Shown here: positions 6,217 through 29,377 of the stretch, in pieces
Position numbering within the stretch: position 1 is the first letter of the stretch
Layout: each line of letters begins with the position of its first letter
Source of the DNA: an archaeon
Lineage (GTDB): Archaea > Iainarchaeota > Iainarchaeia > Iainarchaeales > 1-14-0-10-31-34
Direction: 5' to 3'
NCBI GenBank assembly: GCA_024277355.1
Contig: JAJRVL010000011.1
Coordinates: 60,001-92,000, forward strand
DNA length: 32,000 nucleotides
Position numbers and translations under genes: made by a program
The notes under the pieces: model-generated
Seen by the model: only the letters and a program-made list of their open reading frames with translations
Told to the model about the DNA's origin: nothing
Databases searched by the model: none

Positions 6217-6238
6217 ACTTTTAATGCTTAATTTATTT

Positions 6239-6796: not shown

Positions 6797-6844
6797 AAAC
6801 CTAAATAAATAAATTTAAATCAAGTTAATTTCTAATTGAAAAAG

Positions 6845-8689: not shown

Positions 8690-8721
8690 AAAAAAATAAT
8701 AGAAATAAAATTGCATTAATC

Positions 8722-8764
8722 AAAAAAAAGTTAATTAAAATAAAGTGAAATAAAAAAAAGTTAA
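8722..8764 (-). terminator. Repeated oligo-T tracts downstream of the phosphohexomutase gene
   Basis: The 13-mer AAAAAAAAGTTAA occurs at 8722..8734 and 8752..8764 (plus strand). On the minus strand each reads TTAACTTTTTTTT, giving T8 archaeal-type termination signals just past the TAG stop at 8775. Confidence 0.4.
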
Positions 8765-8774
8765 AGTAATTTTT

Positions 8775-10142: not shown

Positions 10143-10155
10143 TCAAAACCAATAG

Positions 10156-10166
10156 AAATATAAAAA
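10156..10166. promoter_or_regulatory. Single central TATA-like element in a 43-bp divergent intergenic region
   Basis: AAATATAAAAA is centred 19 nt from the phosphohexomutase ATG (10142, minus strand) and 25 nt from the galT ATG (10186, plus strand). No other A/T box fits in the 43 bp. Confidence 0.45.
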
Positions 10167-10185
10167 CCAAAGCATTAAAGACATT

Positions 10186-11172: not shown

Positions 11173-11233
11173 AAACCTTAATCCATTAAATTTAATAAAA
11201 GAAAGAACAGATTATTAGTGGAAAAACTGTTTT

Positions 11234-11244
11234 GTGATTAAATG
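11234..11244 (+). promoter_or_regulatory. GTGATTAAATG start context (SD fragment GTGAT plus ATG)
   Basis: An identical 11-mer occurs at 17311..17321. GTGATGAAATG is at 22145..22155 (ispD) and GAGATTAAATG at 20890..20900 (dxr). GTGAT is part of the sequence complementary to the usual 16S rRNA 3' end (..GAUCACCUCC..). Confidence 0.5.
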
Positions 11245-13023: not shown

Positions 13024-13025
13024 TA

Positions 13026-13138
13026 ATTTTTAATAAAACCTTTTTGAAAAGTTTGTTTTTGCAAAGCAAACTAATTTTTGATAAACCTTTTTTTTTAAAA
13101 AGATTTTTTTGATAAAACTTTTTCTGAAAAAGTTTTTT
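13026..13138. repeat. Three tandem imperfect units of about 30-35 nt, each a hairpin, plus a fourth hairpin, in a convergent intergenic region
   Basis: The units at 13026..13054, 13074..13106 and 13104..13138 share TTTTT[AG]ATAAA(A)C(C)TTTTT..AAAA(A)G[TA]TTT. Unit 3 is a perfect 10-bp stem (AAAACTTTTT ctg AAAAAGTTTT, 13114..13136). A further hairpin GTTTGTTTT tgc AAAGCAAAC is at 13051..13071. These probably act as bidirectional terminators. Confidence 0.5.
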
Positions 13139-13331
13139 ATTCAGTTAAATAAAACTTGTTTTTTGAGATTCCAATTTTTCCTTCTCTTGCAAGCCAGCCT
13201 AAAGCAGCAAAAACATGTTCTGATTTAAGTTTAGTTGCTTTTTTTAACTGAACTGCATTCATTGGTTTTTTGTTGTTTAATACATTCCATACAGTTCCTG
13301 CTTTGCTTCCAAAATATTCATTTGATTCCAT
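13137..13331 (-). CDS. Small winged-helix protein (DUF2582-like)
   Basis: 64 aa. The pattern AGTVWNVLNN...MNAVQLKKATKLKSEHVFAALGWLAREGKI matches the small archaeal wHTH family I recall as DUF2582. It is the last gene of the glgA-GH57 minus-strand run. Confidence 0.55.
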   Translation of the reverse strand: MESNEYFGSKAGTVWNVLNNKKPMNAVQLKKATKLKSEHVFAALGWLAREGKIGISKNKFYLTE

Positions 13332-13388
13332 TTTATGCCCTCCTAAGAAAGTTAATTCATTAATATTGTAAAAAATAAATTATTAAAT

Positions 13389-14558
13389 CTATTGCAATCT
13401 TTGCTTTAAATCAGCTAAAACATTAGCATAATTCAAAAAAGATTCATAAGGAGAATCATAAGGATTGAAATATTTATGCACGTCTCCGTCAGCAAACCAT
13501 TTAGTGCACATATAATAAAAATGATCTGAAATCTGCAGTTTTCTCCAGTCCTGAATTAACTTTGGGTTTCTTGAAGCTAAAATTTTTTCTTCTAAAGATT
13601 TAATTTCGTTAAATGCCTGCTGCTGCATTTGATTTTCAAGCCATGCAGATAAATCTCTGTCAACATCAGCCCAAGAAGAAATATAAGGAACATCAAATTC
13701 TCCTACAACAGGAAAATCATTAATTATTTCTGAAGCAGTAGCAAACTCTAATTTTTTTGTTTTAAACATTTCTTTTGGAAGATGCTTTAAAAAATTAAAT
13801 ATTCCTGTTGACTCCCATTGATGTTCACCAAAAGTTTCATAATCCATAAATAAATTAATGCAATGCCCTTTGTTTTGTGAAAGCCATAAAGCATATTTAT
13901 CAGCAGTTAAAGGCCATTCATTCCAGTCTCTTGAAGAAAAACGAAAAGCAATATCATCTGAAAGCTTGTAATTTCTTAACAAAACTTTAATATTTGAATT
14001 TTTAGCTTTGTAAACATAATTAGGGGAACGCCAACCTAAAACAGAAGTTAAACCTTCAGATACAATTCCTTTAAAATTCATTTCTTCTGCTGCTTTAGCT
14101 ATTTCATTTGAATACATTGCTTCAGTGTTACGGAAAATTTTTGGTTTAACTCTAAAAACTTTCTTGAATTTCTTTGAATGCATTTTAACTTGTTTTACAA
14201 ATTCTTTTTGTGAAACTAAATAAGCTAAAGAATGATAATAAGTTTCATCAAATAATTCAACGTTCCCGGAATCAACTAATTTCTGAAATGATTCAACTAC
14301 TTCAGGAAAATGTTCTTCTAATTGATCTAAAAAAACTCCTGTAATGCTGAAACAAAATTTAAATTTGTCTCCGTGTTTTTCAATTAAATCCAGTAAAATT
14401 TTGTTTGTTGGGAGATAACATTTATTTGAAACTCTTTCTAAATAAAATTTATTTGCCAAATCATCAAAATAATTATTGTTTTTTCCTATGTCAAACAAAG
14501 AATAATTCCTTAAACGCAAAGGCTGATGAACATGAAAATAAAGACAAACTGCAGGCAT
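13389..14558 (-). CDS. Glycoside hydrolase family 57 protein (alpha-amylase-like)
   Basis: 389 aa. Has the GH57-type N-terminus CLYFHVHQPLRLRNY, and later FMDYETFGEHQW. Its start overlaps the glgA stop (TAATG at 14556..14560), implying translational coupling. Confidence 0.8.
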   Translation of the reverse strand: MPAVCLYFHVHQPLRLRNYSLFDIGKNNNYFDDLANKFYLERVSNKCYLPTNKILLDLIEKHGDKFKFCFSITGVFLDQLEEHFPEVVESFQKLVDSGNVELFDETYYHSLAYLVSQKEFVKQVKMHSKKFKKVFRVKPKIFRNTEAMYSNEIAKAAEEMNFKGIVSEGLTSVLGWRSPNYVYKAKNSNIKVLLRNYKLSDDIAFRFSSRDWNEWPLTADKYALWLSQNKGHCINLFMDYETFGEHQWESTGIFNFLKHLPKEMFKTKKLEFATASEIINDFPVVGEFDVPYISSWADVDRDLSAWLENQMQQQAFNEIKSLEEKILASRNPKLIQDWRKLQISDHFYYMCTKWFADGDVHKYFNPYDSPYESFLNYANVLADLKQRLQ

Positions 14559-15775
14559 TAAACAACCTCTTTGTAAATTTCAAGGCATTGATCTGCAACA
14601 GAACCCCAACTAAAAGACTGAAGTTCAGTAAAAGCATTATGTTTTAGTTCATGCGAAAGAGAACCATGTTCTAATACCCCAATTATTTTATTTGTTAATT
14701 GATTTACATCCCAAAAATCAACTTTAAAGCAATGATTAATCACTTCACTTACTCCTGATTGTTTTGAAATAATCACAGGATTCTTAGAAGCCATTGCCTC
14801 TAATGCAGTCAAACCAAAAGGCTCTGAAACAGAAGGCATAACAAACAAATCTGCAATAGAATAAAATTGTTTTACATTGTCTTGAAAACCAGAAAAAGAA
14901 ATTTTATCTGAAATGCCCATTGCAATAGCTTTATTGATTAAAGAAGAAAGCATGTCTCCGTCTCCAACAATAACAAAACGAGTATTAGGTTTAAATTGAA
15001 GAACTTGATATGCTGCTTCAAGAAACCAGTCAGGACCTTTTTGAATAGTTAATCTTCCTAAAAACAAAACAACTTTTTCATTTAAAGCAAAATTAGAATT
15101 ATCCACGATATAACTTGATTTATCTATTCCATTGTATACTACTTGAATTTTTTGTTCAGGAATATTATATCTTTCAATTAACTGGTTTTTCATGTAATTG
15201 CTTATTGTAATTACTTTATCTGCTTCAATTAAGCCGTTTCTTTCAACTTTACAGATTTTTTCATTAGGAAACTGATTTCCTGTCCTGTCAAATTCAGTTG
15301 AATGAATAGTAACAATTAAGGGCTTGTTTTTTGCTTTTTTTAATGCAATTCCTGCAGGAAAAGTCATCCAATCATGACAATGGATTACATCACAAGGTTT
15401 TGAAGTCATTTTTTTCACTGCAGAAACAGTATAACTTTTAACTTTAGAGAAAAAATCCATTCCATAAGCATTAATGTTTTTTTCAGCTTCATGCCTTTCA
15501 AGATCACTTTTAACTTCCTCAGAATAAATAATGTTATTTGAAGGAGAATAAGGATGAAAATCAAAGCCTTCAATTTCAATTAAATCTAAATGAGCATAAT
15601 CTTCTGCCTGAACAACTTCAATAAAACCCGGATTAATTTTTACGCCAGTAGAAGGCATAACAAAAGTAACTTTAGTTCCTTTTTTAGATAAAGCTTTAGT
15701 AAAACCAAATAAATAAGTGCCTAAACCTCCAGATTTAAATGGAGGAAACTCCCAACCAAGCATTAAAACATTCAT
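14558..15775 (-). CDS. glgA: GT-B glycosyltransferase, archaeal glycogen synthase (GlgA)-like
   Basis: The ATG at 15775 gives MNVLMLGWEFPPFKSGGLGTY, a GlgA-type N-terminal KxGGL motif. The C-terminal domain has VMPSVSEPFGLTALEAM (GT-B E-x7-E region). The first 11 codons of the ORF-track version were trimmed. Confidence 0.75.
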   Translation of the reverse strand: MNVLMLGWEFPPFKSGGLGTYLFGFTKALSKKGTKVTFVMPSTGVKINPGFIEVVQAEDYAHLDLIEIEGFDFHPYSPSNNIIYSEEVKSDLERHEAEKNINAYGMDFFSKVKSYTVSAVKKMTSKPCDVIHCHDWMTFPAGIALKKAKNKPLIVTIHSTEFDRTGNQFPNEKICKVERNGLIEADKVITISNYMKNQLIERYNIPEQKIQVVYNGIDKSSYIVDNSNFALNEKVVLFLGRLTIQKGPDWFLEAAYQVLQFKPNTRFVIVGDGDMLSSLINKAIAMGISDKISFSGFQDNVKQFYSIADLFVMPSVSEPFGLTALEAMASKNPVIISKQSGVSEVINHCFKVDFWDVNQLTNKIIGVLEHGSLSHELKHNAFTELQSFSWGSVADQCLEIYKEVV

Positions 15776-15929
15776 ATAATCAACCACTAACCTGCATGAT
15801 TTTCTCATAATTGTGCAGTTGGGTTACTAAAAAAACACAAGTCAATACTGCAAGGTAATATATGGGCTTAAGTTAAATAAAAGAGTTTGTGTTTGGAAAA
15901 ATTAACCAAAAAAATAAAACAAAAAAAGA

Positions 15930-15940
15930 TTTATACATAA
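15930..15940 (+). promoter_or_regulatory. TATA-like box TTTATACATAA (copy 1 of 3)
   Basis: GATTTATACATAATTTTACA sits in the glgA/pfkB divergent intergenic region, 56 nt upstream of the pfkB ATG. It is nearly identical to the 23749..23767 copy. Confidence 0.5.
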
Positions 15941-15985
15941 TTTTACACAAAAACAATAAATACAATTACTTCGTATTCTTAAAGA

Positions 15986-16942
15986 ATGAAACCAAAAATT
16001 GCTTGTATTGGTTCTGCTACAGAAGACATTTTTGTTAAAACAGATGAATTTCATTTCAGAAAAGACAAAACCCATAAAGGAACAGATTTATGCCTTAAAT
16101 TAGGCAAAAAATTTGATATAGATGAAATTCACTTTGATTTTGGCGGAGGGGCATTAAATACTTCTTTAGGATTTAAAAAAATGGGTTTTGACACAAATGT
16201 ACTGGTTTCTTTAGGAAATGATTCAACTGCAAAAAAAATTGAAATAATTCTTAAAATGGAAAAAATTAATTTAATTAAAGTTCAGTCAGACAAAGAAACC
16301 GGTTTTTCAATTATATTCAGGAAACCTAAAGGAGACAGAACAATAATGACTTACCGAGGAGCAAACAATAAATGGAATGAAAAAGAAGTTGAATGGAATA
16401 AACTAAAAAAAATGAACTGGATTTACCTTTGTTCATTTGGAACTAATATTAAGTTTTTAGAAAAAATTGCTTTTTTCTGCAAAAAACACAAAATCAAATT
16501 AGTCTTTAATCCTGGTTTATCTCAAAGAAAACTTAAATTAGACAAAATGAAAAACATAGTAAAAAACTGTTATTCAATAATTTTGAATAAAGAAGAAATA
16601 ACTGAATGGACAAAAAAAAGAAATGAAATGGATGCAATGAGAGAATTAAATGAATTAGGAACAAAAATTATTGTGACAACAGACGGAAGAAAAGGAAGTT
16701 CTGCTTTTAATGGAAAAAAGTTTTTTAAACAAAAAGGATTTGATGTAAAAAGAGAAGATGTAACAGGAGCAGGAGATGCTTTTTCTGTTGGATTTATTGC
16801 AGGAATGGAAAAGAAAAAAAACATTAAAGACGCATTAAAAATTGGAACAGCTAATGCCTGTTCAACTATAACTAAAATCGGCGCACACAACGGAATATTA
16901 TCTTTTCCTAAATCAGAAGAATTTGTAAAAAAACATCAATGA
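15986..16942 (+). CDS. PfkB-family (ribokinase-like) sugar kinase
   Basis: 318 aa. Has the N-terminal GGGALNTS motif and PfkB signature 2, DVTGAGDAFSVGFIAG. Substrate unknown. Confidence 0.85.
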   Translation: MKPKIACIGSATEDIFVKTDEFHFRKDKTHKGTDLCLKLGKKFDIDEIHFDFGGGALNTSLGFKKMGFDTNVLVSLGNDSTAKKIEIILKMEKINLIKVQSDKETGFSIIFRKPKGDRTIMTYRGANNKWNEKEVEWNKLKKMNWIYLCSFGTNIKFLEKIAFFCKKHKIKLVFNPGLSQRKLKLDKMKNIVKNCYSIILNKEEITEWTKKRNEMDAMRELNELGTKIIVTTDGRKGSSAFNGKKFFKQKGFDVKREDVTGAGDAFSVGFIAGMEKKKNIKDALKIGTANACSTITKIGAHNGILSFPKSEEFVKKHQ

Positions 16943-17226
16943 CGTTTTGGTTTTATTGGATTTCGTATTCTGGAAATTGTTCTTTTTAATTTTAAGTTAT
17001 ATGCTTTGTGTTTTCTTTTTAAATAAATTTTATAATCAATTTTATTTAAATGTTTCTGAAACCATTGCTCTTTTGCAAAAGCTATTGAATGATTTTTGTT
17101 TTTTGCATTCCATCGGAATTCATTGAATTCTTTTTCAAACGCTTCTTTTGTAGGCCATGTTTTTTTGTCTGCCCCATATTTAAAAAAAGGTGCAAAAACT
17201 TTTTTTCCATTTAATTTAACATACAT
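16936..17226 (-). CDS. Small basic hypothetical protein
   Basis: 96-aa ORF that converges on and overlaps the pfkB stop by 7 nt. A TATA-like GAAAATTTAAATG sits about 25 nt upstream of its ATG. No recognisable motif. Confidence 0.4.
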   Translation of the reverse strand: MYVKLNGKKVFAPFFKYGADKKTWPTKEAFEKEFNEFRWNAKNKNHSIAFAKEQWFQKHLNKIDYKIYLKRKHKAYNLKLKRTISRIRNPIKPKRH

Positions 17227-17245
17227 TAAAATAAATTATTGACTT

Positions 17246-17291
17246 GAAAATTTAAATGTTTTTCGAATATCTTCCAGAAAAATTTAAATAG
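17246..17291. promoter_or_regulatory. Pair of GAAAA(A)TTTAAAT boxes serving divergent genes
   Basis: GAAAATTTAAATG (17246..17258) lies about 25 nt from the minus-strand ATG at 17226. GAAAAATTTAAATAG (17277..17291) lies about 30 nt from the plus-strand ATG at 17319. Confidence 0.45.
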
Positions 17292-17318
17292 TAAAAGAAT
17301 AATAGTATTAGTGATTAA

Positions 17319-17717
17319 ATGAAATTCTTTGAAGATTTAATTAAAAAACTAAAAAAAGAAACTAAATTTTTGTTTAACGGAATGAATACATATGAACTGC
17401 AGAGAACTAAAGGAAGCGAGTGTGCTGCAGTATTGTTAAGCGAAGTAAAACATTCTGATCATTATTTTTATTTGGATTCCAGTATTGCAATTAAAAGTTT
17501 ATGCGAATTATCCGACCATTTACAGGAAATGGATGCAGAAACATTCAGTAAACATGTAAATGAAGAAAAAAATGATTTTAGTGCGTGGGTTTCAAATACA
17601 ATTGGCGACAAGACTTTAGGAAAAAAAATGAATGAATTAAAAGAACAGGATGAAATTGCCAAAGCAGTTGAAATTAGAGTTAATTACATTAAAAGAAGAG
17701 CACAAAATAATTACTGA
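17319..17717 (+). CDS. Hypothetical protein
   Basis: 132 aa with start context GTGATTAAATG. Shows the pattern YFYLDSSIAIKSLCELSDHLQEMDAETFSKHVNEEKNDFSAWV. This may correspond to a small family seen next to glycosyltransferases (low-confidence recollection). Confidence 0.5.
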   Translation: MKFFEDLIKKLKKETKFLFNGMNTYELQRTKGSECAAVLLSEVKHSDHYFYLDSSIAIKSLCELSDHLQEMDAETFSKHVNEEKNDFSAWVSNTIGDKTLGKKMNELKEQDEIAKAVEIRVNYIKRRAQNNY

Positions 17718-17722
17718 TTTTT

Positions 17723-17995
17723 ATGCATTTAATGCTGAAAGAAAAAGAAATTCTTGTAAGTATTTTAGATGAACCAAAAACAATTGAAGAAATACAATTA
17801 AAAGTTTTTTTAAGTTTTGGAGAAACAAGAGAATTAATAAGAAAACTAATTAAAGAAAAAAAAATTTCAAGAGAAAAAAGTTTTCCTGTAAAATATTCAG
17901 TTAAAAAAGAATTAAGAAAAAGCATTAAAGAAATTAAAAGAAAACTTGACTGGACTGAATTAGTTTCTGATGCGTGTTTTGTTTGTGATTACTAA
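17723..17995 (+). CDS. Small putative winged-helix protein ending in CxxC
   Basis: 90 aa. The EKEILVSILDEPKTIEEIQLKV...TRELIRKLIKEKKI segment is wHTH-like, and the C-terminus is DACFVCDY followed by TAA. Confidence 0.45.
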   Translation: MHLMLKEKEILVSILDEPKTIEEIQLKVFLSFGETRELIRKLIKEKKISREKSFPVKYSVKKELRKSIKEIKRKLDWTELVSDACFVCDY

Positions 17996-18007
17996 AAAGT
18001 GAATTCA

Positions 18008-18112
18008 ATGACTGAAGAATTTGAAAACCAATTAAAAAAATTAGATGAAAGAATTAAAAAAGACTTAAAAAAAGAAAAGTCAATTCCTTCCTGCATTAGA
18101 TGCTGTAAATAA
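18008..18112 (+). CDS. 34-aa ORF ending in CxxCC, in the same frame as the preceding gene
   Basis: Encodes MTEEFENQLKKLDERIKKDLKKEKSIPSCIRCCK*. It is separated from 17723..17995 by one TAA and 4 sense codons, in the same reading frame. Confidence 0.3.
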   Translation: MTEEFENQLKKLDERIKKDLKKEKSIPSCIRCCK

Positions 18113-18122
18113 AAAAAATAGT

Positions 18123-20756
18123 TTACTTTTTTTCTTTTATTTTTGCCTGAGCTGCAGCTAATCTTGCAATTGGAACCCTAAAAGGCGAACAAGAAACATA
18201 ACTTAAACCTAAAGAATGACAGAATTCAATTGAAGCAGGATCTCCTCCGTGTTCCCCGCAGATTCCTAACTTAATATTTTCTTTTGCTTTTTTTGCATGA
18301 CCTACTGCAATTTCCATTAATTTTCCTACTCCTGAAATATCAACTGAAACAAAAGGAGAAACAGAAAAAATTTTTTCTTCAAAATATTTATTGAAAAATT
18401 TTCCTTCAACATCGTCTCTAGAAAAACCAAAAGTAGTCTGAGTTAAATCATTTGTTCCAAAAGAAAAAAAATCCGCATGCTCTGCAATTTCATCTGCAGT
18501 TAAAGCAGCTCTAGGTAATTCAATCATTGTCCCAATAGGAATATTATTTTCAGGAATTAAATCAGATAAAACTTTTTCTACTTTTTTTCTTGACAATTCA
18601 AGTTCTTTTGCTATTCCAACTAAAGGAATCATTATTTCAGGTTTAGGTGAAAGCCCTTTATTTTTCAAATTTAATGCAGCTTCAGCTATTGCTCTGGTTT
18701 GCATTTCAATTATTTCAGGATAAACTATTCCAATCCTGCATCCTCTAAAACCAAGCATTGGGTTAACTTCATGTAATTCTTTTATTTTAATTAATAAAGC
18801 TTTTTTTACTGCAATTTCTTCTAAAACGTCAGAGTTATTTAAATCTCTTTTTCTTTTTAATCGGTTTATTTCTCTTAATAATTTTTCTTTTGAAGGCAAA
18901 AATTCATGTAAAGGAGGATCAATTAAACGAATTGTAACAGGAAAGCCATCCATTGCCTCAAAAATTTCTTCAAAATCTTTTCTCTGCATTTTTTCTAATT
19001 CATCTAAATGTTTTTTTCTTTCATCAAAAGAAGAACTTAAAATCATTTTCTGAACAATAGGAAGTCTTTTAGCGTCAAAAAACATGTGTTCAGTTCTGCA
19101 TAAGCCGATTCCTTTAGCTCCTAATTCAACTGCTTTTTTTGCGTCTTTTGGAGTATCAGCATTAGTTCTTACTCCTAAAGTTTTAATTTCATCACTCCAT
19201 TCAAGAATAGTAGAAAAAAACTTATATGGTTCAGGTTCAATTAATTTAATTTCCCCTAAAAAAACTTTTCCTGTTGTACCGTCAATTGAAATAAAATCTC
19301 CTTGATTTAATTCAGTTCCCTCAACTTTAAGGGTTTTAGTTGAATAATCAATTTTTATTTCTTCGCATCCAACAACACAAGGTTTGCCCATTCCTCTTGC
19401 AACAACAGCAGCATGAGAAGTGTTTCCTCCTCTGCAAGTTAAAATTCCTTTTGATGCAATCATTCCATGAATATCTTCAGGAGAAGTTTCATGTCTGACT
19501 AAAATTACGTTTCCTTTTTCGCTTTCTTTTTCAGCTGTATTTGCATCAAAAAACATTCTCCCTGATGCAGCCCCGGGAGAAGCATTTAACCCTAAAGCAA
19601 TTTCATTTAATTTTTGTTTTGGGTCAATTCTTTTATGGAGCAGTTGATTTAAATCTAAAGGATTAATTCTCAGTAAAGCTTCTTGTTTTGAAATTAGTTT
19701 TTCTTCAACTAATTCAACTGCAATTCTAACTGCTGCCTGACCGGTTCTTTTTCCGTTTCTGGTCTGCAGTAAAAATAATTTTTTGTCTTCAATAGTAAAT
19801 TCAGTGTCCTGCATGTCTTTGTAGTGTTTTTCTAATTTTTCGCATACAGACTTAAATTCTTCAAAAACTTCAGGCATTACTTCATTTAATTCAGCAATTA
19901 TTCTTGGAGTACGGATTCCTGCAACAACATCCTCGCCTTGAGCATTTAACAAAAATTCTCCATATAATTTTTTTATTCCATTAGAAGGGTTTCTGGTAAA
20001 ACACACTCCTGTCCCTGAAGTTTCGCCTAAATTTCCAAAAACCATTTCCTGAATTACTACTCCAGTTCCCCATGAATCAGGAATTTTATTTAATTTACGA
20101 TAAGTTATTGCTCGTTTATTATTCCATGAATTAAATACAGCCTTAACCGCTAAAATTAATTGTTGTTTTGGTTCTTCAGGAAAAGTGTTTTTTGTTTCTT
20201 GTTCAACTAAATTTTTGTATTCTTTAATTATTTTTTTTAGTGATTCAGCAGTTAAATCACAGTCTTTTGTTGTTTCTGTATTTTGTTTTTCTTTTTCTAA
20301 GATTTCTTCAAATTTATCGTGTTCTAAATTTAATACAACATTAGAAAACATCTGAATAAATCTTCTGTAAGAATCTAATACAAATCTTTCATTTTTTGTT
20401 TTTTCAATCATTGATTTAATTGTTTTTTCATTTAATCCAAGATTTAATACTGTATCCATCATTCCAGGCATTGAGGTTCTTGCACCACTTCTAACTGAAA
20501 CTAATAAGGGGTTTTCTCCTGAAAACTGTTTTTTTGTTTGTTTTTCTAATTGCATTAAAGAGTCATTTAATTCTTGTTCTAATCCTTCAGGGAAATCATT
20601 TGAATCAAAAAAATTAATACAAGCTTGAGTTGAAATCACAAAACCTTTAGGGACAGGCAAACCTAATTTAGTCATTTCACATAAATTGCTTCCTTTTCCT
20701 CCTAAAAGGTTTTTCATTTCTTTGCTTCCTTCCTCAAAAAAATAAATATACTTCAA
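18123..20756 (-). CDS. ppdK: Pyruvate, phosphate dikinase
   Basis: 877 aa. The N-terminus (M)KYIYFFEEGSKEMKNLLGGKGSNLCEM aligns with the PPDK consensus, which supports the TTG start at 20756. Has the phosphohistidine signature GGNTSHAAVVARGMGKPCV and C-terminal PEP-utilizer motifs (FFSFGTNDLTQ). Confidence 0.95.
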   Translation of the reverse strand: MKYIYFFEEGSKEMKNLLGGKGSNLCEMTKLGLPVPKGFVISTQACINFFDSNDFPEGLEQELNDSLMQLEKQTKKQFSGENPLLVSVRSGARTSMPGMMDTVLNLGLNEKTIKSMIEKTKNERFVLDSYRRFIQMFSNVVLNLEHDKFEEILEKEKQNTETTKDCDLTAESLKKIIKEYKNLVEQETKNTFPEEPKQQLILAVKAVFNSWNNKRAITYRKLNKIPDSWGTGVVIQEMVFGNLGETSGTGVCFTRNPSNGIKKLYGEFLLNAQGEDVVAGIRTPRIIAELNEVMPEVFEEFKSVCEKLEKHYKDMQDTEFTIEDKKLFLLQTRNGKRTGQAAVRIAVELVEEKLISKQEALLRINPLDLNQLLHKRIDPKQKLNEIALGLNASPGAASGRMFFDANTAEKESEKGNVILVRHETSPEDIHGMIASKGILTCRGGNTSHAAVVARGMGKPCVVGCEEIKIDYSTKTLKVEGTELNQGDFISIDGTTGKVFLGEIKLIEPEPYKFFSTILEWSDEIKTLGVRTNADTPKDAKKAVELGAKGIGLCRTEHMFFDAKRLPIVQKMILSSSFDERKKHLDELEKMQRKDFEEIFEAMDGFPVTIRLIDPPLHEFLPSKEKLLREINRLKRKRDLNNSDVLEEIAVKKALLIKIKELHEVNPMLGFRGCRIGIVYPEIIEMQTRAIAEAALNLKNKGLSPKPEIMIPLVGIAKELELSRKKVEKVLSDLIPENNIPIGTMIELPRAALTADEIAEHADFFSFGTNDLTQTTFGFSRDDVEGKFFNKYFEEKIFSVSPFVSVDISGVGKLMEIAVGHAKKAKENIKLGICGEHGGDPASIEFCHSLGLSYVSCSPFRVPIARLAAAQAKIKEKK

Positions 20757-20887
20757 TTCAAATCCCCCTTAAACAAAATCATGTAAAACTTCATAAAAAG
20801 TATGAAAACTTAGATAAAGAAAGCTTTTAAACCAAATGTTTAACTAAAAAAAGCAATTCATTTAAACTATTAAGAACTGAATATTAC

Positions 20888-20892
20888 AGGAG
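20888..20892 (+). promoter_or_regulatory. Shine-Dalgarno-like AGGAG upstream of dxr
   Basis: acAGGAGattaaATG, with a 5-nt spacer. Confidence 0.5.
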
Positions 20893-20897
20893 ATTAA

Positions 20898-21914
20898 ATG
20901 AAAAAAATAAGTATTTTAGGTTCAACCGGAAGCATCGGAACACAGACTTTAGATGTAGTAAGACAGCATTCTGATGAATTCAAAGTTTTAGGGTTAGCTG
21001 CGTTTAATGAAATAGACAAAATAATTGAACAAATTAATGAATTTAAGCCGGAAAAAGTCTGTTTGTTTGATGAAAAATCAGCTGAAGAGTTAGCAAAAAA
21101 AACTGATGTTGAAGTTGTTTCAGGGATGCAGGGATTAAAAGAAATTGCAGTAATAGAAGAAATTGAGCAGACAATTGTTTCAGTTGTAGGTGCAATAGGA
21201 ATTGAGCCGACAATGCATGCAATAAAAAAAGGAAAAAATATTGCTTTAGCAAATAAAGAAACTTTAGTTTCAGCAGGACAGCCAATAATGAAAGAAGTCA
21301 AAAAACAAGGAATTGTATTAATGCCAATTGATTCAGAGCATTCAGCTATATTTCAATGTTTGAATGGAGAGGAAAGAAAAAAAGTTTCAAAAGTTTTAAT
21401 TACTTGTTCTGGCGGGCCGTTTAGAGGGAAAAAAATTTCTGATTTTTATAATGCAACTCCTGAACAGGCTTTAGGACATCCAACATGGAGTATGGGTTCA
21501 AAAATTACAATTGATTCTTCAACTTTAATGAATAAAGGCCTGGAAGTATTGGAAGCAAAATGGCTGTATGATTTAGAATTAGAAGAAATTGAAGTAGTAA
21601 TTCATCCTCAAAGTTTAATTCATTCAATGGTTGAATTTACTGACGGGAGTATTATGGCTCAAATTGGAACACACGATATGCGTACTCCCATCCAATATGC
21701 TTTAACTTATCCAAAAAGATTAACAAATGAATTTCCAAGATTAAATTTATTTGAAAACAATAATTTAACTTTTGAAAAACCTGATTACAAAAATTTTCCG
21801 TGTTTAGGTTTTGCTTTTGAAGCAGGAAAACAAAAAGGAACTTTAGCTTCAGCAATGAATGCAGCAAATGAAATTGCTGTCTGGAGTTTTTTAGATAAAA
21901 AAATCAAGTACTGA
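20898..21914 (+). CDS. dxr: 1-deoxy-D-xylulose-5-phosphate reductoisomerase, ended early by an in-frame TGA
   Basis: Motifs present: ILGSTGSIGTQTLDV (NADPH site), LANKETLV, PIDSEHSAIFQC, GHPTWSMG, NKGLEVLEA and HPQSLIHSMVEF. AGGAG sits 5 nt upstream of the ATG. The ORF stops at 338 aa inside the conserved ANEIAVWSFLDKKIKY segment. Confidence 0.85.
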   Translation: MKKISILGSTGSIGTQTLDVVRQHSDEFKVLGLAAFNEIDKIIEQINEFKPEKVCLFDEKSAEELAKKTDVEVVSGMQGLKEIAVIEEIEQTIVSVVGAIGIEPTMHAIKKGKNIALANKETLVSAGQPIMKEVKKQGIVLMPIDSEHSAIFQCLNGEERKKVSKVLITCSGGPFRGKKISDFYNATPEQALGHPTWSMGSKITIDSSTLMNKGLEVLEAKWLYDLELEEIEVVIHPQSLIHSMVEFTDGSIMAQIGTHDMRTPIQYALTYPKRLTNEFPRLNLFENNNLTFEKPDYKNFPCLGFAFEAGKQKGTLASAMNAANEIAVWSFLDKKIKY

Positions 21915-22043
21915 GAAATCCCGGAAATAATTAAACAAGTAATGGATTTACATAAAAATACTTTAAATCCTTCTTTAGAGGATTCACTTGAAGCAGATAA
22001 AAAAGCAAGAGAAACAGCAAAAAAAATAATAGAAGAAAAATGA
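21915..22043 (+). other. In-frame continuation encoding the missing Dxr C-terminal region
   Basis: Directly after the TGA at 21912..21914 and in the same frame comes EIPEIIKQVMDLHKNTLNPSLEDSLEADKKARETAKKIIEEK*. This matches the usual Dxr tail pattern (..I..ii..v.......sledvl..D..AR..A). The joined length is 381 codons, typical for Dxr. Confidence 0.7.
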
Positions 22044-22152
22044 GAAAAAATGAAAAAACAGCAGAGTATTCAGTTATTCAGTAATTGATAATTTAATAAA
22101 CAAAACAAAAAGAAATTTAAGCATTAAAAGAGTTTAATTACAAAGTGATGAA

Positions 22153-22842
22153 ATGAATTATGCAGTAATTTGTGCCGGCGGAAAAGGAATAAGAATGGAC
22201 GCCGGAAAAAACAAAGTGTTCTTAAAAATTAAAGGCAAAGAAATAATTGCAAAAACTATTTTAGTGTTTGAAAAAGCAAAAGAAATAAACGGAATAATTA
22301 TTTCAATTGGAAAGAATGACATAAAAGAAATACAGGAAATAATTGAAAAAGAAAAATTTGAAAAAATTAAAGCAGTAATTGAAGGTGGAAAAGAAAGACA
22401 GGATTCCGTTTATAATGGAATAAAAAAATTACAGGAATTTGCAGAAAAAGATGACGTGATTTTAATTCATAATGCAGCAAACCCTTTTGTAAAAGAAGAA
22501 ACAATAAACAACTGCATTAAAGCAGCAAAAGAATTTGGAGCAAGTGTTGCAGCACAAAAAGTAAAAGACACAATAAAAAAAGTTGATGAAGATTTATTAG
22601 TTAAAAAAACATTAAACCGAAAAGAATTATGGCAAATGCAGACTCCGCAGGCAATAATTAACCACATTGCATTAAAAGCATTTGAAAAAGCTTATTCAGA
22701 AAACTTTTATGGAACAGATGACGTTCAGTTAGTTGAAAGAATTCATGGAAAAATAAAAATAGTTGAATGTTCATATAAAAACATTAAAATTACAACAAAA
22801 GAAGATATAGAATTAGCAGAAAGAATTTTAGATGAAAACTGA
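22153..22842 (+). CDS. ispD: 2-C-methyl-D-erythritol 4-phosphate cytidylyltransferase
   Basis: 229 aa. Motifs are AVICAGGKGIRM, GGKERQDSVYNG, VKDTIKKV and LWQMQTPQ. Homologous cytidylyltransferases such as TarI cannot be excluded from motifs alone, but the dxr/ispF/dxs neighbours support IspD. Confidence 0.8.
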   Translation: MNYAVICAGGKGIRMDAGKNKVFLKIKGKEIIAKTILVFEKAKEINGIIISIGKNDIKEIQEIIEKEKFEKIKAVIEGGKERQDSVYNGIKKLQEFAEKDDVILIHNAANPFVKEETINNCIKAAKEFGASVAAQKVKDTIKKVDEDLLVKKTLNRKELWQMQTPQAIINHIALKAFEKAYSENFYGTDDVQLVERIHGKIKIVECSYKNIKITTKEDIELAERILDEN

Positions 22843-22857
22843 TTAAAATGAAAAAAA

Positions 22858-23709
22858 TTGTCAGGAAATTGTTTAAAAGAAAAAAAAACCCCTAAAAAAA
22901 TAAATATTCCCAGAAGAAAGTTTCTCAAAACCATAACTATCGGAACTACATCAATATCTTTAGCTTATCTTTTGAGCTGTTTTCCAATTAAGCTATCTAA
23001 ACTGCCTATAGAAAAAACCCATCAAACTACATTACTTGGAATGATTCATTTTACAGACATGAAATCAAGCAAACAAGAAATTATTAATAAAACAAAAACC
23101 AATAAAAATACTTTAAAAAGCTACAATAAAGCACTTGAAGCCATTAAAAGACTGCCTGCTGGTTCAAGAATATTAATTGAAGATGCTACTCCTTTTTCAG
23201 TTAACGGAAAAAAGTATTACAGTATTTTTTCTGTTTTATCTGAAAAAGCAAGAGCAAAAGGATTAATAGTTGAAAATTATCTTCCAAGAAAAGCAATATT
23301 CAGGAGAATTGACGCATACAGTTATTTGATTGAAACATTTTATAAAAATAAAAATCCAGAAATAATTAAAGCAAGAAAAAAAGAACTAGCTAAAAAATAC
23401 AATCTTAGTTCAATAAAAAACATTAATTCTGTTGAAGAAGCAAGCACAAAATTATATCAATATTTTGAACATATGACAAATTTTTTAATTAAATCTTACA
23501 GAAAAAAACCAGCATTAATTATTGCAGGAGATTTACATGTTGCTGCATCAAAAAAATGGCTGAAAAATGCTGAAGATATAACTCCTAAAAACACCAGAAA
23601 ATACACTGAAAAAATCATGGCAAATTCAAAACAAGAATTTAAAGAACTAGTTGAATTATTTGAAAAACACAGAGAAAAAATGGTTAAAAAATTAAAAGTT
23701 AACGGATGA
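22858..23709 (+). CDS. Putative Tat-signal lipoprotein with TraB/Tiki/ChaN-like motifs
   Basis: Has a twin-arginine consensus PRRKFLKT followed by an h-region ITIGTTSISLAYLLSC, where LLSC is lipobox-like. The mature part has LLGMIHFTD near its start and PALIIAGDLHVAA near its end, resembling the GTxH...GxxH pair of the TraB/PrgY/Tiki/ChaN superfamily. The start is uncertain: TTG at 22858, or ATG at 22848 in another frame. Confidence 0.5.
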   Translation: MSGNCLKEKKTPKKINIPRRKFLKTITIGTTSISLAYLLSCFPIKLSKLPIEKTHQTTLLGMIHFTDMKSSKQEIINKTKTNKNTLKSYNKALEAIKRLPAGSRILIEDATPFSVNGKKYYSIFSVLSEKARAKGLIVENYLPRKAIFRRIDAYSYLIETFYKNKNPEIIKARKKELAKKYNLSSIKNINSVEEASTKLYQYFEHMTNFLIKSYRKKPALIIAGDLHVAASKKWLKNAEDITPKNTRKYTEKIMANSKQEFKELVELFEKHREKMVKKLKVNG

Positions 23710-23752
23710 ATTAATAGTTAGATAAAAAAAAAAGCAACAATATAAAAAGGAT

Positions 23753-23763
23753 TTTATACATAA
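23753..23763 (+). promoter_or_regulatory. TATA-like box TTTATACATAA (copy 2 of 3), ispF promoter
   Basis: GGATTTTATACATAATTTTAGTG. The box starts 25 nt upstream of the ispF ATG (23778), which fits archaeal leaderless geometry. Confidence 0.55.
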
Positions 23764-23777
23764 TTTTAGTGAGAGTT

Positions 23778-24299
23778 ATGCCATTTAGAGTAGGATTAGG
23801 ACAAGATTCCCATAGGTTTTCTCACGTGCATGAAAAAAGACCTTTGATTTTAGGCGGAATAGAAATTAAAGATTGTTTGGGTTTAAAGGGAAATTCAGAT
23901 GCAGATGTAATACTTCATGCATTATTTAATTCTCTTGCACAATTAATTGGCTGGAAAAGTTTAGGAAGCCATGCAGACAAAATGGTTAAAGAACAAGGAA
24001 TAACTGATTCAAAAGAATACTTAAAAGAACCATTAAAAAAACTAAAAGAAATGAATTATGAAATTACAACTGTAAGCATCACACTTGAATGCAAAAAACC
24101 AAAAATTGATCCGGTATCAAATGAAATAAGAACAAGTGTTGCAAAAATTCTTGGAATAAAAAAAGAACAAGTAGGAATAATTGCAACAACAGGAGAAAGA
24201 TTAACTGCTTTTGGAAGAGGGGAAGGAATACAAGCATTTACAGTGATAACAGCAATACATAAAGACATCAAAAAATTTACAGGAAAAAAAAATAAATAA
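23778..24299 (+). CDS. ispF: 2-C-methyl-D-erythritol 2,4-cyclodiphosphate synthase
   Basis: The ATG at 23778 gives MPFRVGLGQDSHRF (the Zn-binding DxH motif); SDADVILHAL and ATTGERLTAFGRGEGI follow. The ORF track's GTG at 23769 is 3 codons upstream. A TATA-like box lies 25 nt upstream of the ATG. Confidence 0.85.
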   Translation: MPFRVGLGQDSHRFSHVHEKRPLILGGIEIKDCLGLKGNSDADVILHALFNSLAQLIGWKSLGSHADKMVKEQGITDSKEYLKEPLKKLKEMNYEITTVSITLECKKPKIDPVSNEIRTSVAKILGIKKEQVGIIATTGERLTAFGRGEGIQAFTVITAIHKDIKKFTGKKNK

Positions 24300-24392
24300 A
24301 TAAATTCGTTCTTTGACGTAATATGCTTGTTAAATCAACGTAAGGTTTAAATAGTTTGAGCTATAATATTGGTATTTCGGGAAAAGATTTTT

Positions 24393-26192
24393 ATGGATAA
24401 AAATGAATTAAATTTTGGAAAATTACTGGAAAAAATTGATTCTCCAGCAGACTTAAAAAAACTAAAAGTTGAAGAATTAGAAGAATTGTCTAAAGAAGTA
24501 AGAGAAGTTTTAATTAAAACCTGTTCAGCTAACGGAGGACATATTGGGGCAAATTTAGGAGTAGTTGAATTAAGCATTGCATTGCATTATGTTTTTAATT
24601 CTCCTCAAGACAAATTTTTGTTTGATACAAGCCATCAAAGTTATACTCACAAATTATTGACTGGAAGGAAAAAAGATTTCCATACAATCTGCACTCCAAA
24701 AGGAATTCCAAGATTTACAGTAAGAAATGAAACTCCATTTGATAACTGGAGTGCAGGCCATGCTTCAACTGCATTAAGCGGAGCAATGGGAATGGCTGAA
24801 GCAAGAAAAACAAACAAACAAGAATATGAAGTAGTAGCAGTAACAGGCGACGGAGCATTAACCGGCGGAATGTGTTATGAAGCACTAAATAATATCGGGT
24901 ATAACCAGACAGATGTAATTTTAATTTTAAATGACAACAAAATGAGCATTTCTCCTAATGTAGGTGCAATGTATAAACATTTGAAAAAGCTGTCAATGTT
25001 TGCAGACGAAAAAATTCCACGAAGAGAAGTAGGAACAATATTTGAAAAATTAGGAATTCAATATTACGGGCCGGTTGACGGCCATAACGTAAAAAAATTA
25101 GTTGAAGAATTAGAAAATTTAAAAGACTTAAAAGGACCAAAATTGCTTCATGTATTAACCATTAAAGGAAAAGGAATGGAATACATGGAAAACGATAAAG
25201 CAACATGGCATGAGCACCCTGCATTTGATGTTGAAACCGGCCAGCCAATAAAAAAAGGACCTGCAAAAATAGAAAAAATTGCAGTTCAGGCTTTAATGGA
25301 ATTAGCAGAACAAGATAAATCAATTGTGGGAATTACAGCAGCAATGCCTGCAGGAACCGCTTTAATTGAATTCAGCAAAAAATTCCCTGACAGATTTTAT
25401 GATGTAGGAATAGCAGAAGAACACGCAGTTACTTTTGCAGCAGGATTAGCTGCAGAAAAAACAAAACCTTTTGTAGTAATTTACAGTCCTTTTTTGCAGA
25501 GAGCTTTTGATCAGGTAGCACATGATGTTGCATTACAGGATTTGCCGGTAAAATTATTGGTTCCAAAAGCAGCAATAACCGGAGACGGCCCAACACAAGG
25601 AGGAATCCTTGACTTCAGTTATCTGAGAATTATTCCAAACTTAATTGTAATGGCGCCAAAAGATGAAAACGAATTAAGACATATGATTAAAACCGCACAA
25701 GAATACAATAAAGGACCAATTAGTGTCAGATACCCAAAAGGAAATGCTTTAGGAGTAGAATTAGATAAAGAAATGAAATCAATTGAAATAGGAAAAGCTG
25801 AAATGATTAAAGAAGGAAAAGACATTTCTTTGATTAGTATTGGATTTATGTTAAAAGAAACAGTTGAAGCTGCTGAGATTTTAAAGAAAGAAGGGATTGA
25901 TGCTGAAGTAATTAATTCAAGGTTTGTTAAACCATTAGATAGAAAAATGATTTCTGAAAGCCTGAAAAAAACAGGAAAAGGAATCACAATAGAAGAAAAT
26001 ATTCTTCCCGGAGGGTTTGGTTCAGCTGTCTTGGAAATGCTTGAAGCTAAAGGACTAAATGAAGTTGTATTGCAGAGAATAGGCGCACCAGACGAATATA
26101 TTGGTTATGACAGTCCAAATGAAATCAAAAAACAGTTTGGAATGGATGCAGAAAGCATAGTAAAAAAAGTTAAAAAAATGCTTGGAAAATAA
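24393..26192 (+). CDS. dxs: 1-deoxy-D-xylulose-5-phosphate synthase
   Basis: Motifs present: SPADLKKL, NGGHIGANLGVVELSIALHYVF, DTSHQSYTHKLLTGR, the ThDP motif GDGALTGGMCYEALNN, and IAEEHAVTFAAGLA. The ORF-track TTG at 24369 is an alternative start. Confidence 0.9.
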   Translation: MDKNELNFGKLLEKIDSPADLKKLKVEELEELSKEVREVLIKTCSANGGHIGANLGVVELSIALHYVFNSPQDKFLFDTSHQSYTHKLLTGRKKDFHTICTPKGIPRFTVRNETPFDNWSAGHASTALSGAMGMAEARKTNKQEYEVVAVTGDGALTGGMCYEALNNIGYNQTDVILILNDNKMSISPNVGAMYKHLKKLSMFADEKIPRREVGTIFEKLGIQYYGPVDGHNVKKLVEELENLKDLKGPKLLHVLTIKGKGMEYMENDKATWHEHPAFDVETGQPIKKGPAKIEKIAVQALMELAEQDKSIVGITAAMPAGTALIEFSKKFPDRFYDVGIAEEHAVTFAAGLAAEKTKPFVVIYSPFLQRAFDQVAHDVALQDLPVKLLVPKAAITGDGPTQGGILDFSYLRIIPNLIVMAPKDENELRHMIKTAQEYNKGPISVRYPKGNALGVELDKEMKSIEIGKAEMIKEGKDISLISIGFMLKETVEAAEILKKEGIDAEVINSRFVKPLDRKMISESLKKTGKGITIEENILPGGFGSAVLEMLEAKGLNEVVLQRIGAPDEYIGYDSPNEIKKQFGMDAESIVKKVKKMLGK

Positions 26193-26644: not shown

Positions 26645-27484
26645 TTACAAAAAATCCCTTGATTTTTTCCATTCAATTTCAGCTTTCTCACAAAAAGAAA
26701 TAATTTTTTGTTTTTGTTCTGAAACTAAACCTTTCCAGTCAAACAAAACAAAATCAACTTTTTCAGAAGTCTGTTTAATCATTTGTTCAAATAAAACAAA
26801 ATCAACTTCATTAACATAATATTTAGATAAAATATGAGAAACCGCAATATCTGTTCTGGCCATTACTTTAGAAAAAGAAGGACAATAATGGGTTCCGCCT
26901 ACTCCAATTGCTGTCTTGAAATTTGAATTAAAATTAAAAAAAGAATCCATAATAGAAAAAGCAATTATTTTTCCTGCCTGCTTATTTTTCCATTCGGTTT
27001 CATTGCTTCCAATTTCAATAAAAACTGCAGGTTTAGACAAAAAAGGGCCGTGATGAGTTTGCTCCATTAAAACAGGCCAGTCAAAATTTTCTTTTTTTGT
27101 TTGTTCAAGTAAATTCAAAAAAAAGTTTTTCATTACTAAAGAAGAAACTGAAACTAAAGTTTTTTCTTTTCCGCCTAAATCAGCTTTACTAAAATTTCCT
27201 ATTGGGTGAACAGAAAAAGTTTTTTGTCCTGATTCACTTGAATGCTTTGAAGCAAAAATAAACAAATCAGTTTCTAATTCATCTAAAAAATCTGCGGTAA
27301 CTTGTTTTTCATTAATTAAAATTAAATCAAAAATTTGTTTTTCATTAGAAAAAGAATAAATTGAATTTGAATTAAATTGTTTTTCTGTTTTCTTAAAATC
27401 AAAGCATTCAATTAAATTAGAATAAATGTTTAATCCTGCTAAATCTGTTTTAGAAACAATAATTGAAATTTTATTAAAGTTCAT
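26645..27484 (-). CDS. dtdA: D-aminoacyl-tRNA deacylase, archaeal DtdA type
   Basis: 279 aa. The N-terminus is IIVSKTDLAGLNI, with central HHGP and GVGGTHYCPSF motifs characteristic of the archaeal/plant tRNA_deacylase family. Confidence 0.8.
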   Translation of the reverse strand: MNFNKISIIVSKTDLAGLNIYSNLIECFDFKKTEKQFNSNSIYSFSNEKQIFDLILINEKQVTADFLDELETDLFIFASKHSSESGQKTFSVHPIGNFSKADLGGKEKTLVSVSSLVMKNFFLNLLEQTKKENFDWPVLMEQTHHGPFLSKPAVFIEIGSNETEWKNKQAGKIIAFSIMDSFFNFNSNFKTAIGVGGTHYCPSFSKVMARTDIAVSHILSKYYVNEVDFVLFEQMIKQTSEKVDFVLFDWKGLVSEQKQKIISFCEKAEIEWKKSRDFL

Positions 27485-27501
27485 AAGAAAAAAACAAATA
27501 A

Positions 27502-27972
27502 TTATTTTTTATAACTTAAGGATAACTGGCCAAAAACATCTTCTAAATTATTTAAAGTTTGAATTAAGTTTTTTGTAACGTAATGATTGAAAGATGCTTT
27601 GAGGTCATCTCGTTCAGCAAAAGGCGCAGGATTAAATAAATACGCCTGTTTTTTTCTAACTAATAAATCAAATTCTTTCATTCGGTTTAAATGATATCTT
27701 AAAAGTTTTTCAGAGATTTTTTTTGAATTCTTTTTTTTAATATAAGACTGGATGTTTGGAACAGTAGGAAGCGTTTTAGAAAAATTCAAATAAAATAATG
27801 CATCTAATACATCTAAAACAGTGGTTCTGGATTCTTTTTCTGAAAGCAAACCAAAAGACAAAGCAAACCACCTTAACATTGAACGTTTAGTTAATTTTAC
27901 ATTAGGGGGGAAATCCATTGATTTAATTATGAAAGTTTTTCTAACTAAACAGCTTTCAGGTAATTCAGACAA
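27502..27972 (-). CDS. Hypothetical protein, possible winged-helix DNA-binding protein
   Basis: 156-aa ORF with a TTG start; an internal ATG gives MDFPPNVKLTKRS.... The segment ISEKLLRYHLNRMKEFDLLVRKK resembles a wHTH recognition helix plus wing. Weak call. Confidence 0.4.
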   Translation of the reverse strand: MSELPESCLVRKTFIIKSMDFPPNVKLTKRSMLRWFALSFGLLSEKESRTTVLDVLDALFYLNFSKTLPTVPNIQSYIKKKNSKKISEKLLRYHLNRMKEFDLLVRKKQAYLFNPAPFAERDDLKASFNHYVTKNLIQTLNNLEDVFGQLSLSYKK

Positions 27973-28768: not shown

Positions 28769-29377
28769 ATGAGCAAAATTATTTCAAATCCTGACAAAAA
28801 CCAGAATATAATTCTGATTGTTCCTGAAGAAAAATACCAGAATACAATTCAAGCATTACTAAAAGAACTGGTTTCAGCAAAAAAAACAATTGTTTTTATT
28901 TCAGTTAATAAAACAAAAAAAGCATTAGAAAAAGAATTAAAAGAAAATAAAATTTCAACAGAAAAAATTTATTTTGTTGACTGTGTAAGCAAAAGTATTT
29001 CAAAAGGAAAAATTTCATGGAGCGACGAAAAAAACCAATATGTCGATAACCCAACTTCTTTAACTCAAATAAGCCTTGCAGTATTTAAATTATTTGACCA
29101 GACAAAAATGGATTATTTAGTTTTAGATTCAATTAACACTTTGCTGATATATAATGAAGAAAAAGAAGTGTTGAAATTTGTACATCACACAACAGGCAAA
29201 CTAAAAGAAAACAACAAAACCGGTGTGTTTGTTTATTTAAAGGAAGAAATGAATCAAACTTTGCTGAAAAAGTTTTCTCAGTTTTCCGATAAAATAATTG
29301 AAGCAAATCCCCCTGAAAAAAAAGAATTTATTAGAAAAAAAGGTTCAATGAATTCATTTGAAGAAATAAAGCTTTAA
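28769..29377 (+). CDS. Degenerate RecA/KaiC-fold (DUF835-like) domain protein
   Basis: 202 aa. Colinear with the 1..609 product, with a Walker-B-like YLVLDSINTLLIYN and no P-loop. A TATA-like GTATTTAAAGG lies about 28 nt upstream of the ATG. Confidence 0.6.
   Translation: MSKIISNPDKNQNIILIVPEEKYQNTIQALLKELVSAKKTIVFISVNKTKKALEKELKENKISTEKIYFVDCVSKSISKGKISWSDEKNQYVDNPTSLTQISLAVFKLFDQTKMDYLVLDSINTLLIYNEEKEVLKFVHHTTGKLKENNKTGVFVYLKEEMNQTLLKKFSQFSDKIIEANPPEKKEFIRKKGSMNSFEEIKL

Follow-up and report, generated by a model that had tools for sequence, protein, structure and literature searches.

How did an archaeon come by a run of genes for the bacterial-type methylerythritol phosphate (MEP) route to isoprenoids, and why do three of the seven genes fail to appear in it? 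The question is raised by a stretch of 32,000 nucleotides from an Iainarchaeota genome (GCA_024277355.1, contig JAJRVL010000011.1, positions 60,001 to 92,000; hereafter the window), in which five co-oriented open reading frames (ORFs) at 20898-26192 comprise dxr, ispD, a protein of 283 aa referred to as ORF X, ispF and dxs. The four MEP genes are probably the native, vertically inherited core of a cluster that was acquired long ago and from which ispE, ispH and ispG were lost at this locus within one subclade. That these three genes lie elsewhere in the genome is favoured slightly, and the alternatives to such a relocation are considered below.

The MEP genes and their archaeal surroundings

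The sequence-only reading had recognised the four genes by their motifs, and this identification is upheld, since all four products pass the NCBIfam equivalog cut-offs of their families. All lie on the forward strand. The dxr gene (1-deoxy-D-xylulose 5-phosphate (DXP) reductoisomerase; 20898-22043, 381 codons, with Pfam support as well) carries an in-frame TGA and passes solely with this codon masked, reaching 512 against a cut-off of 461 for NF009114 and 493 against 316 for TIGR00243. IspD (MEP cytidylyltransferase; 22153-22842) scores 206.5 vs 181.3 for TIGR00453, and its best solved relative is the Bacillus IspD 5ddt (E 2.6e-50), with chains of the ribitol-phosphate cytidylyltransferase TarI ranking well behind. 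An assignment of this protein to TarI is rejected by the TarI model itself (135 vs a cut-off of 166). IspF (synthase of 2-C-methyl-D-erythritol 2,4-cyclodiphosphate, MEcPP; 23778-24299) scores 152 vs 116 for TIGR00151, and its GxDxH, SDADVxxHAL and ATTxERL motifs align to the solved IspF 3re3, with the Zn-site and substrate motifs kept. The listed ORF begins at a GTG at 23769, and the ATG at 23778 is kept in relatives. Dxs (DXP synthase; 24393-26192, the listed ORF beginning at a TTG at 24369) scores 722 vs 466 for TIGR00204, while transketolase models stay far under their cut-offs, so that Dxs as a transketolase is likewise rejected. It is 100% identical to a database entry of 599 aa (P0001) and 77-84% identical to the other members of its subclade.

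Judged by their families, Dxs would convert pyruvate and glyceraldehyde 3-phosphate to DXP, Dxr would turn DXP into MEP, and IspD would turn MEP into the cytidyl intermediate 4-diphosphocytidyl-2-C-methyl-D-erythritol (CDP-ME), while IspF would act on the phosphorylated form of the latter (CDP-ME2P) to yield MEcPP. The absence of ispE, ispG and ispH from the window, noted earlier from the letters, is borne out: Pfam scans of the large ORFs gave none of these and neither idi nor a geranylgeranyl reductase (GGR), and tblastn with Iainarchaeum proteins detected no trace of ispE, ispH, ispG, GGR or the type-2 isopentenyl diphosphate isomerase (IDI-2) in the window, nothing falling below E 0.1.

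The neighbourhood is archaeal, as had been claimed, with a RecJ_archaeal equivalog (530 vs 360) and with DtdA (PF04414) and DUF7504 proteins among the genes matched by Pfam. The first of these, the archaeal RecJ/GAN nuclease (3513-4925, forward strand), corresponds to the left flank of the ancestral cluster, and DtdA and a conserved 156-aa protein (p156), together at 26645-27972 on the reverse strand, form the right flank. The earlier reading had also held that the cluster shares the local style and is neither mis-binned nor recently inserted, and had proposed a check of its tetranucleotide consistency. Indeed, the window is AT-rich throughout (GC about 0.28), the cluster ranging from 0.26 to 0.35 and the remainder from 0.22 to 0.33 without a step, and the tetranucleotide correlation between 20.8-26.3 kb and the rest of the window is 0.989 (0.996 between the two window halves), again without a break. 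A TATA-like box, TTTATACATAA, lies on the forward strand at 23753-23763, 15-25 nt upstream of the ispF ATG, and occurs in four exact copies in the window vs 0.13 expected. Three of these stand before gene starts (15930, PfkB; 23753, ispF; 31259, the last ORF), in agreement with the earlier statement that the ispF box is common to two other loci, and the fourth (7105) lies inside the GDE gene. The sole point in favour of an assembly chimera or a mis-binned bacterial fragment is that the enzyme families are bacterial in ancestry. It is countered by the uniform composition of the window, the sharing of the promoter box with other loci and with relatives, and the same gene order with archaeal flanks in three independent assemblies, so that this explanation is already effectively refuted and its probability negligible.

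The same locus in relatives

Related genomes fall into loci with a complete set of genes and loci with a reduced one. In the complete 1.05 Mb genome of Candidatus (Ca.) Iainarchaeum (CP064981.1, GCA_016699555.1; L001), about 17 kb hold GAN, ispE, ispH, geranylgeranyl reductase, dxr, ispD, ispF, dxs, ispG and IDI-2, and IspE, IspH, IspG and IDI-2, the four proteins tested there, are all above equivalog cut-offs. A second locus, L003, whose Dxs is 73% identical to that of the window, has a compact layout of ispE-ispH followed by dxr-ispD-ispF-dxs-ispG. In L003, ispG is followed immediately by a homologue of p156 (57-58% identity), and in L001 such a homologue comes about 4 kb past ispG. Two further loci (L005 and L007) are variants of the cluster, and GAN adjoins ispE in both as it does in L001. 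In all, four lineages outside the subclade of the window, Ca. Iainarchaeum among them, have ispE between GAN and dxr. Three of the four have ispH next to ispE, three have ispG on the far side of dxs or ispF, and two have GGR or IDI-2 close by; for at least seven more lineages, IspE and Dxs could be linked to one contig by the equal size of their contigs.

The loci closest to the window are arranged differently. L002 (GCA_043819075.1, a 146 kb contig), L004 (a JGI metagenome, 103 kb) and L010 (GCA_043820085.1) are collinear with it, in the order PfkB, small ORFs, PPDK, dxr, ispD, ispF, dxs, DtdA and p156; no ispE was found within 10 kb on either side in these three, and no ispG or ispH in their loci. 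The window itself keeps the dxr-ispD-ispF-dxs order and the GAN and p156/DtdA flanks seen in the clade. Its GAN gene lies at 3.5 kb, and the interval that elsewhere holds ispE, and usually ispH, is occupied by a block of glycogen and sugar genes with PfkB and PPDK (5314-20756; GDE_C, PGM, GalT, Glycogen_syn, GH57 and GT4/5 by Pfam), of which PfkB and PPDK are at the same positions in L002, L004 and L010. On the other side, a single 83-aa ORF and no ispG lies between dxs and DtdA. Since relatives carry the complete cluster at this locus, the gap in the window represents a subclade-specific rearrangement of an ancestrally complete locus. The kinase step is thus missing from the window, as the earlier reading had it, but the gap is not lineage-wide, because relatives have a canonical ispE on the GAN side of dxr. 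Within the subclade of the window, the locus has lost ispE-ispH and ispG, and its left side is now taken up by the glycogen/PPDK block.

The relationships of Dxs are in line with this history. In a neighbour-joining tree of 119 matches, a distance tree without support values, the window Dxs groups with Diapherotrites/Iainarchaeum copies and not with bacteria. The smallest clade with both the window and Iainarchaeum has 36 sequences, none of them bacterially named; its few named members are Ca. Diapherotrites/Iainarchaeum metagenome-assembled genomes (MAGs), one member being labelled Micrarchaeota, and Nanoarchaeota- and Bathyarchaeia-labelled copies sit outside it. Within this clade, the window belongs to a subclade of ten sequences (P0001-P0010; 77-86% pairwise identity), which is sister to a group including L003. 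Among the matches listed, the copies at 59-84% identity are mostly unnamed, the names that occur being Ca. Diapherotrites, Ca. Iainarchaeum, "archaeon" and one Micrarchaeota, and bacterial Dxs are only about 48-51% identical to that of the window. The closest named relatives of the cluster are Ca. Diapherotrites/Iainarchaeota MAGs. An ancestor of this DPANN lineage probably gained the MEP cluster from bacteria long ago, with dxr-ispD-ispF-dxs as its native core, inherited vertically and then rearranged within the clade.

The four genes that remain are conserved at least as well as their neighbours. Compared with L002, L004 and L010, the window proteins are 80-82% (Dxr), 76-78% (IspD), 81-84% (IspF) and 77-82% (Dxs) identical, as against 76-78% for PPDK, 69-71% for DtdA, 76-81% for p156 and 75-81% for PfkB. 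In addition, the TTTATACATAA box before ispF keeps its position in L002 and L004 in spite of a different upstream gene. The conservation of the MEP genes and the retention of the ispF box speak for a function maintained for as long as the subclade has existed, and they make a general decay unlikely; the four genes probably still work as part of a pathway that produces isopentenyl diphosphate (IPP).

Possibly broken, replaced or relocated steps

Whether the module is intact in the window genome depends on the TGA at 21912-21914 within dxr, a codon for which the closest relatives have GGA (Gly). With the TGA masked, three Pfam Dxr domains are matched, the last to residue 372 across the stop, and read-through gives the full 381-residue Dxr; intact proteins of 381-389 aa are found in L002, L004 and L010 (381 aa in L010). 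At the DNA level, the window has AAG TAC TGA GAA where L002 has AAG TAT GGA AAG and L004 has AAG TTC GGA GAA, and GGA at the same codon in L002 and L004 indicates that the TGA is a single G-to-T change. It would be a recent nonsense mutation, or a base-call error or population variant, and is no property of the lineage. Recoding of TGA as glycine or tryptophan, which would leave dxr intact, could appeal to the exact alignment with a Gly codon, as expected under genetic code 25. However, TGA is the ordinary stop of nine other window genes, including ispD, GAN and glnA, none of which has a coding-looking extension beyond it, and the relatives have GGA at the site, so that recoding is rejected as extremely improbable.

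The same codon could be the first visible lesion of a pathway that is being lost, a possibility the earlier reading had raised by calling the cluster decaying. A Gly codon intact in L002 and L004 has been replaced by TGA, and the locus has already lost ispE, ispH and ispG. Yet this is one lesion only: no frameshift is present, and over the 42 codons past the TGA the identity to L002 is still about 67% by a count on the alignment. Moreover, ispD, ispF and dxs retain their full length and their conserved motifs, the conservation of the MEP genes across the subclade equals that of housekeeping genes, and a base-call or population variant is possible at the TGA. Of the earlier suggestion, the nonsense codon stands and is unique to the window genome, but the subclade as a whole has kept the remaining genes and the promoter of ispF conserved, and decay of the whole cluster is improbable.

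A replacement of the kinase step from within the window finds no candidate. ORF X (22858-23709, forward strand) is an orphan without a Pfam or NCBIfam match, has no homologue at any related locus compared and occurs at this locus in the window only; its family has seven representatives among 1.84 billion proteins. The AF2 model is confident (pLDDT 81.5), gives no significant fold match in the PDB, and is disordered or hydrophobic over residues 1-53, in keeping with an N-terminal hydrophobic stretch in the sequence. The slot between ispD and ispF is variable in its contents, being empty in L003 and L010 and holding a basic protein of 147-150 aa in L002 and L004, a NUDIX protein and an unknown protein in L001, and Sua5 in L005, and ORF X is a lineage-specific insertion in it. 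As a replacement kinase it is rejected, having no kinase features and no conservation in the subclade. The family alignment has 14 invariant columns, which include E108, R150, H227, H271 and R272. The PfkB gene, which the sequence-only reading had offered as a speculative supplier of the step, does not hold up either: its product scores merely as a generic member of the ribokinase family, and the gene, which is part of the glycogen/glycolysis block, shows no connection with CDP-ME.

The remaining possibilities are that ispE, ispG and ispH have moved or that the subclade does without them. The searches for IspE and IspG used the best 120 matches listed, with candidates limited to sequences sharing words with the query; for the concatenated IspH and IspG query, the matches listed were IspG at 55% identity or more, with no IspH among them, and the IspG of L001 itself falls below that level. 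Several results weigh against a pathway completed from elsewhere in the genome. Among the matches listed, no IspE or IspG is assignable to the roughly ten-member subclade, none lies on a contig equal in size to the subclade dxs contigs (111, 146, 103, 83, 58 and 43 kb), and each IspE of the archaeal type that has the expected degree of identity traces to another lineage. The nonsense codon in dxr, if real, would moreover break step 2 in the window genome. Accession links tied no listed IspE or IspG to GCA_043819075.1 or GCA_043820085.1, and the archaeal-IspE motif PExKTKWIY gave 11 matches in JGI metagenomes, none from the sample of L004. These negatives are weak because they rest on best-120 listings and word-sharing candidates, with the IspG list swamped by sequences at 55% identity or more. 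By comparison, MEP genes are scattered in other DPANN genomes, which makes relocation plausible; in L009 (GCA_028866775.1, Micrarchaeota, GC 55%), an isolated ispH-ispG pair at 9038-11236 has no other MEP gene within 10 kb.

Among the matches listed, P0187 (MFH1752491.1, on a 16 kb contig) is a divergent archaeal-type IspE and the sole one without a lineage assignment. It has the three-residue insertion of the clade, the conserved KRxDGYHE motif is replaced in it, and it belongs to a separate MAG from the sequencing project that also yielded L002 and L010. An orphan IspG cluster of 35 sequences was considered as that of the subclade and set aside, as it appears to belong to Micrarchaeota/Micrarchaeaceae and the locus fetched from it has a GC of 55%. 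Of 24 further IspG loci (L013-L036), about half are titled Micrarchaeota/Micrarchaeaceae; the 23 IspG loci other than L009 that were gathered with a query from the same cluster have a GC of 0.35-0.69, and none belongs to the subclade assemblies of the window. The AT-rich IspG P0290 (GCA_964492665.1) was likewise rejected as the subclade's, its tetranucleotide correlation to the window being 0.79 vs 0.96-0.97 for true subclade loci. In this low-GC MAG (L012:7910-11058), IspG adjoins genes for HMG-CoA reductase and succinyl-CoA ligase, so that MEP and mevalonate (MVA) genes stand side by side.

The alternative is a truncated or rewired module. Under it, the subclade lacks ispE, ispG and ispH genome-wide and keeps dxs-dxr-ispD-ispF under purifying selection, either with a non-orthologous kinase that makes CDP-ME2P or for a product other than IPP (DXP, MEP, CDP-ME or the cyclic phosphate), with isoprenoid units then coming from a mevalonate route or a host. 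The deletion of ispE-ispH and of ispG from their ancestral positions speaks for it. In its favour, too, the four genes have been conserved together with the promoter of ispF, and no IspE or IspG among the matches listed is assignable to any of about ten subclade members, several of them on contigs of 80-146 kb. A mevalonate pathway is reported in 39.7% of Diapherotrites genomes (PMC8407392), and bacteria with the MVA route often retain incomplete MEP sets (PMC10663253). By contrast, essentially all bacterial MEP users keep Dxr, IspD, IspE and IspF together (PMC10663253). IspF is without an established role when IspE is absent, no kinase came to light that could take its place, ORF X lacking conservation and PfkB being part of the sugar block, and the negative searches are those best-120, word-sharing ones described above. 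No rationale is known for selection to keep Dxr, IspD and IspF if the remaining steps were missing. Taken together, a truncated module is unlikely, though less so than decay, and relocation of ispE, ispG and ispH within the genome remains the slightly favoured reading. The point with real upside is that throughout the subclade ispE, ispH and ispG are separated from the four genes that are conserved; if the three were truly absent, this would be the first sign of a replacement of IspE or of a use of the early MEP steps for something other than IPP.

Known MEP systems and further observations

The view from which the sequence-only reading had set out, that the MEP route is bacterial or plastidial and archaea use mevalonate routes, is out of date, as MEP genes of DPANN archaea have been published (PMC6107057; PMC8421398; PMC12892359). 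A report of 2018 on MEP enzymes in "a few DPANN archaea" explains them by horizontal gene transfer (PMC6107057), Woesearchaeota with MEP genes are described in a paper that cites Castelle and Banfield 2018 (PMC8421398), and a paper of 2025 describes three Micrarchaeota orders with a complete MEP pathway (PMC12892359). One Iainarchaeota MAG from an oxygen-deficient zone (ODZ) was scored with MVA genes (PMC10936187). The closest known system is the MEP cluster of Ca. Iainarchaeum (CP064981.1), whose Dxs (62%), Dxr (56-57%), IspD (48%) and IspF (42%) are orthologues of the window proteins and which has the same gene order and the same flanks of GAN and p156/p158 proteins. The Ca. Iainarchaeum/Diapherotrites loci differ in also holding ispE, ispH, ispG, GGR and IDI-2; compared with the Ca. 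Iainarchaeum cluster, the window side has gained the glycogen/PPDK block and ORF X and lost ispE, ispH and ispG from the locus. The window cluster is thus a rearranged copy of a known oddity and not a new pathway, and what is new is a further case of the Diapherotrites/Iainarchaeota type with a lineage-specific reduced layout.

Other systems are less similar. The Woesearchaeota likewise have a bacterial-type route in a DPANN lineage, attributed to horizontal transfer (Castelle and Banfield 2018, cited in PMC8421398; Huang et al. 2021). However, most members of their subgroup J have a fused ispD/F, whereas ispD and ispF are separate in the window, and some of the MEP genes of this subgroup are reported to be most related to Firmicutes (PMC8421398), whereas the window Dxs falls in a separate Diapherotrites/Iainarchaeum clade. 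The Micrarchaeota, a sister DPANN phylum, are reported to have gained a complete pathway by horizontal transfer (PMC12892359), and one MAG of the subclade is labelled Micrarchaeota, but the genome sampled here (L009) has its isolated ispH-ispG pair at a GC of 55%. With the bacterial MEP/DOXP pathway of E. coli and Bacillus, the window shares the seven-enzyme chemistry, its four enzymes meeting the same equivalog models, but it has an archaeal host and promoters of the archaeal, TATA-like kind, and three of the seven genes were not found in it. In a bacterial survey, MEP enzymes were found to be evolutionarily rigid and retained together (PMC10663253). The incomplete sets of MVA bacteria resemble the window in retaining a partial MEP complement, but the Staphylococcus examples quoted keep one or two MEP enzymes, not four (PMC10663253). 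Archaeal MEP genes bear on the "lipid divide" and on the capacity of DPANN archaea for their own isoprenoid synthesis, and the window documents a MEP cluster that was acquired once, inherited and then rearranged within a Diapherotrites/Iainarchaeota-type lineage.

Several observations concern the neighbourhood. No tRNA genes and no Rfam families were found within the window. The PPDK of L010 and L011 (1420-5301) holds a LAGLIDADG intein, the product in L011 being 1293 aa long, and the window PPDK (877 aa) is without an intein. Within the glycogen block, a 593-aa protein at 11242-13023 matches PF05693 Glycogen_syn end to end (E 3e-135), which we take to be GT3, a eukaryote-type family. Two paralogous DUF7504/DUF7090 KaiC-like proteins are encoded at 106-609 and 28769-29377, and the second is kept in position in L002, L004 and L010. 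About 9 kb downstream of dxs, L004 has a gene for squalene/phytoene synthase (SQS_PSY; 20790-21709) that is split into two overlapping ORFs; its presence hints at a use of prenyl diphosphates by the lineage.

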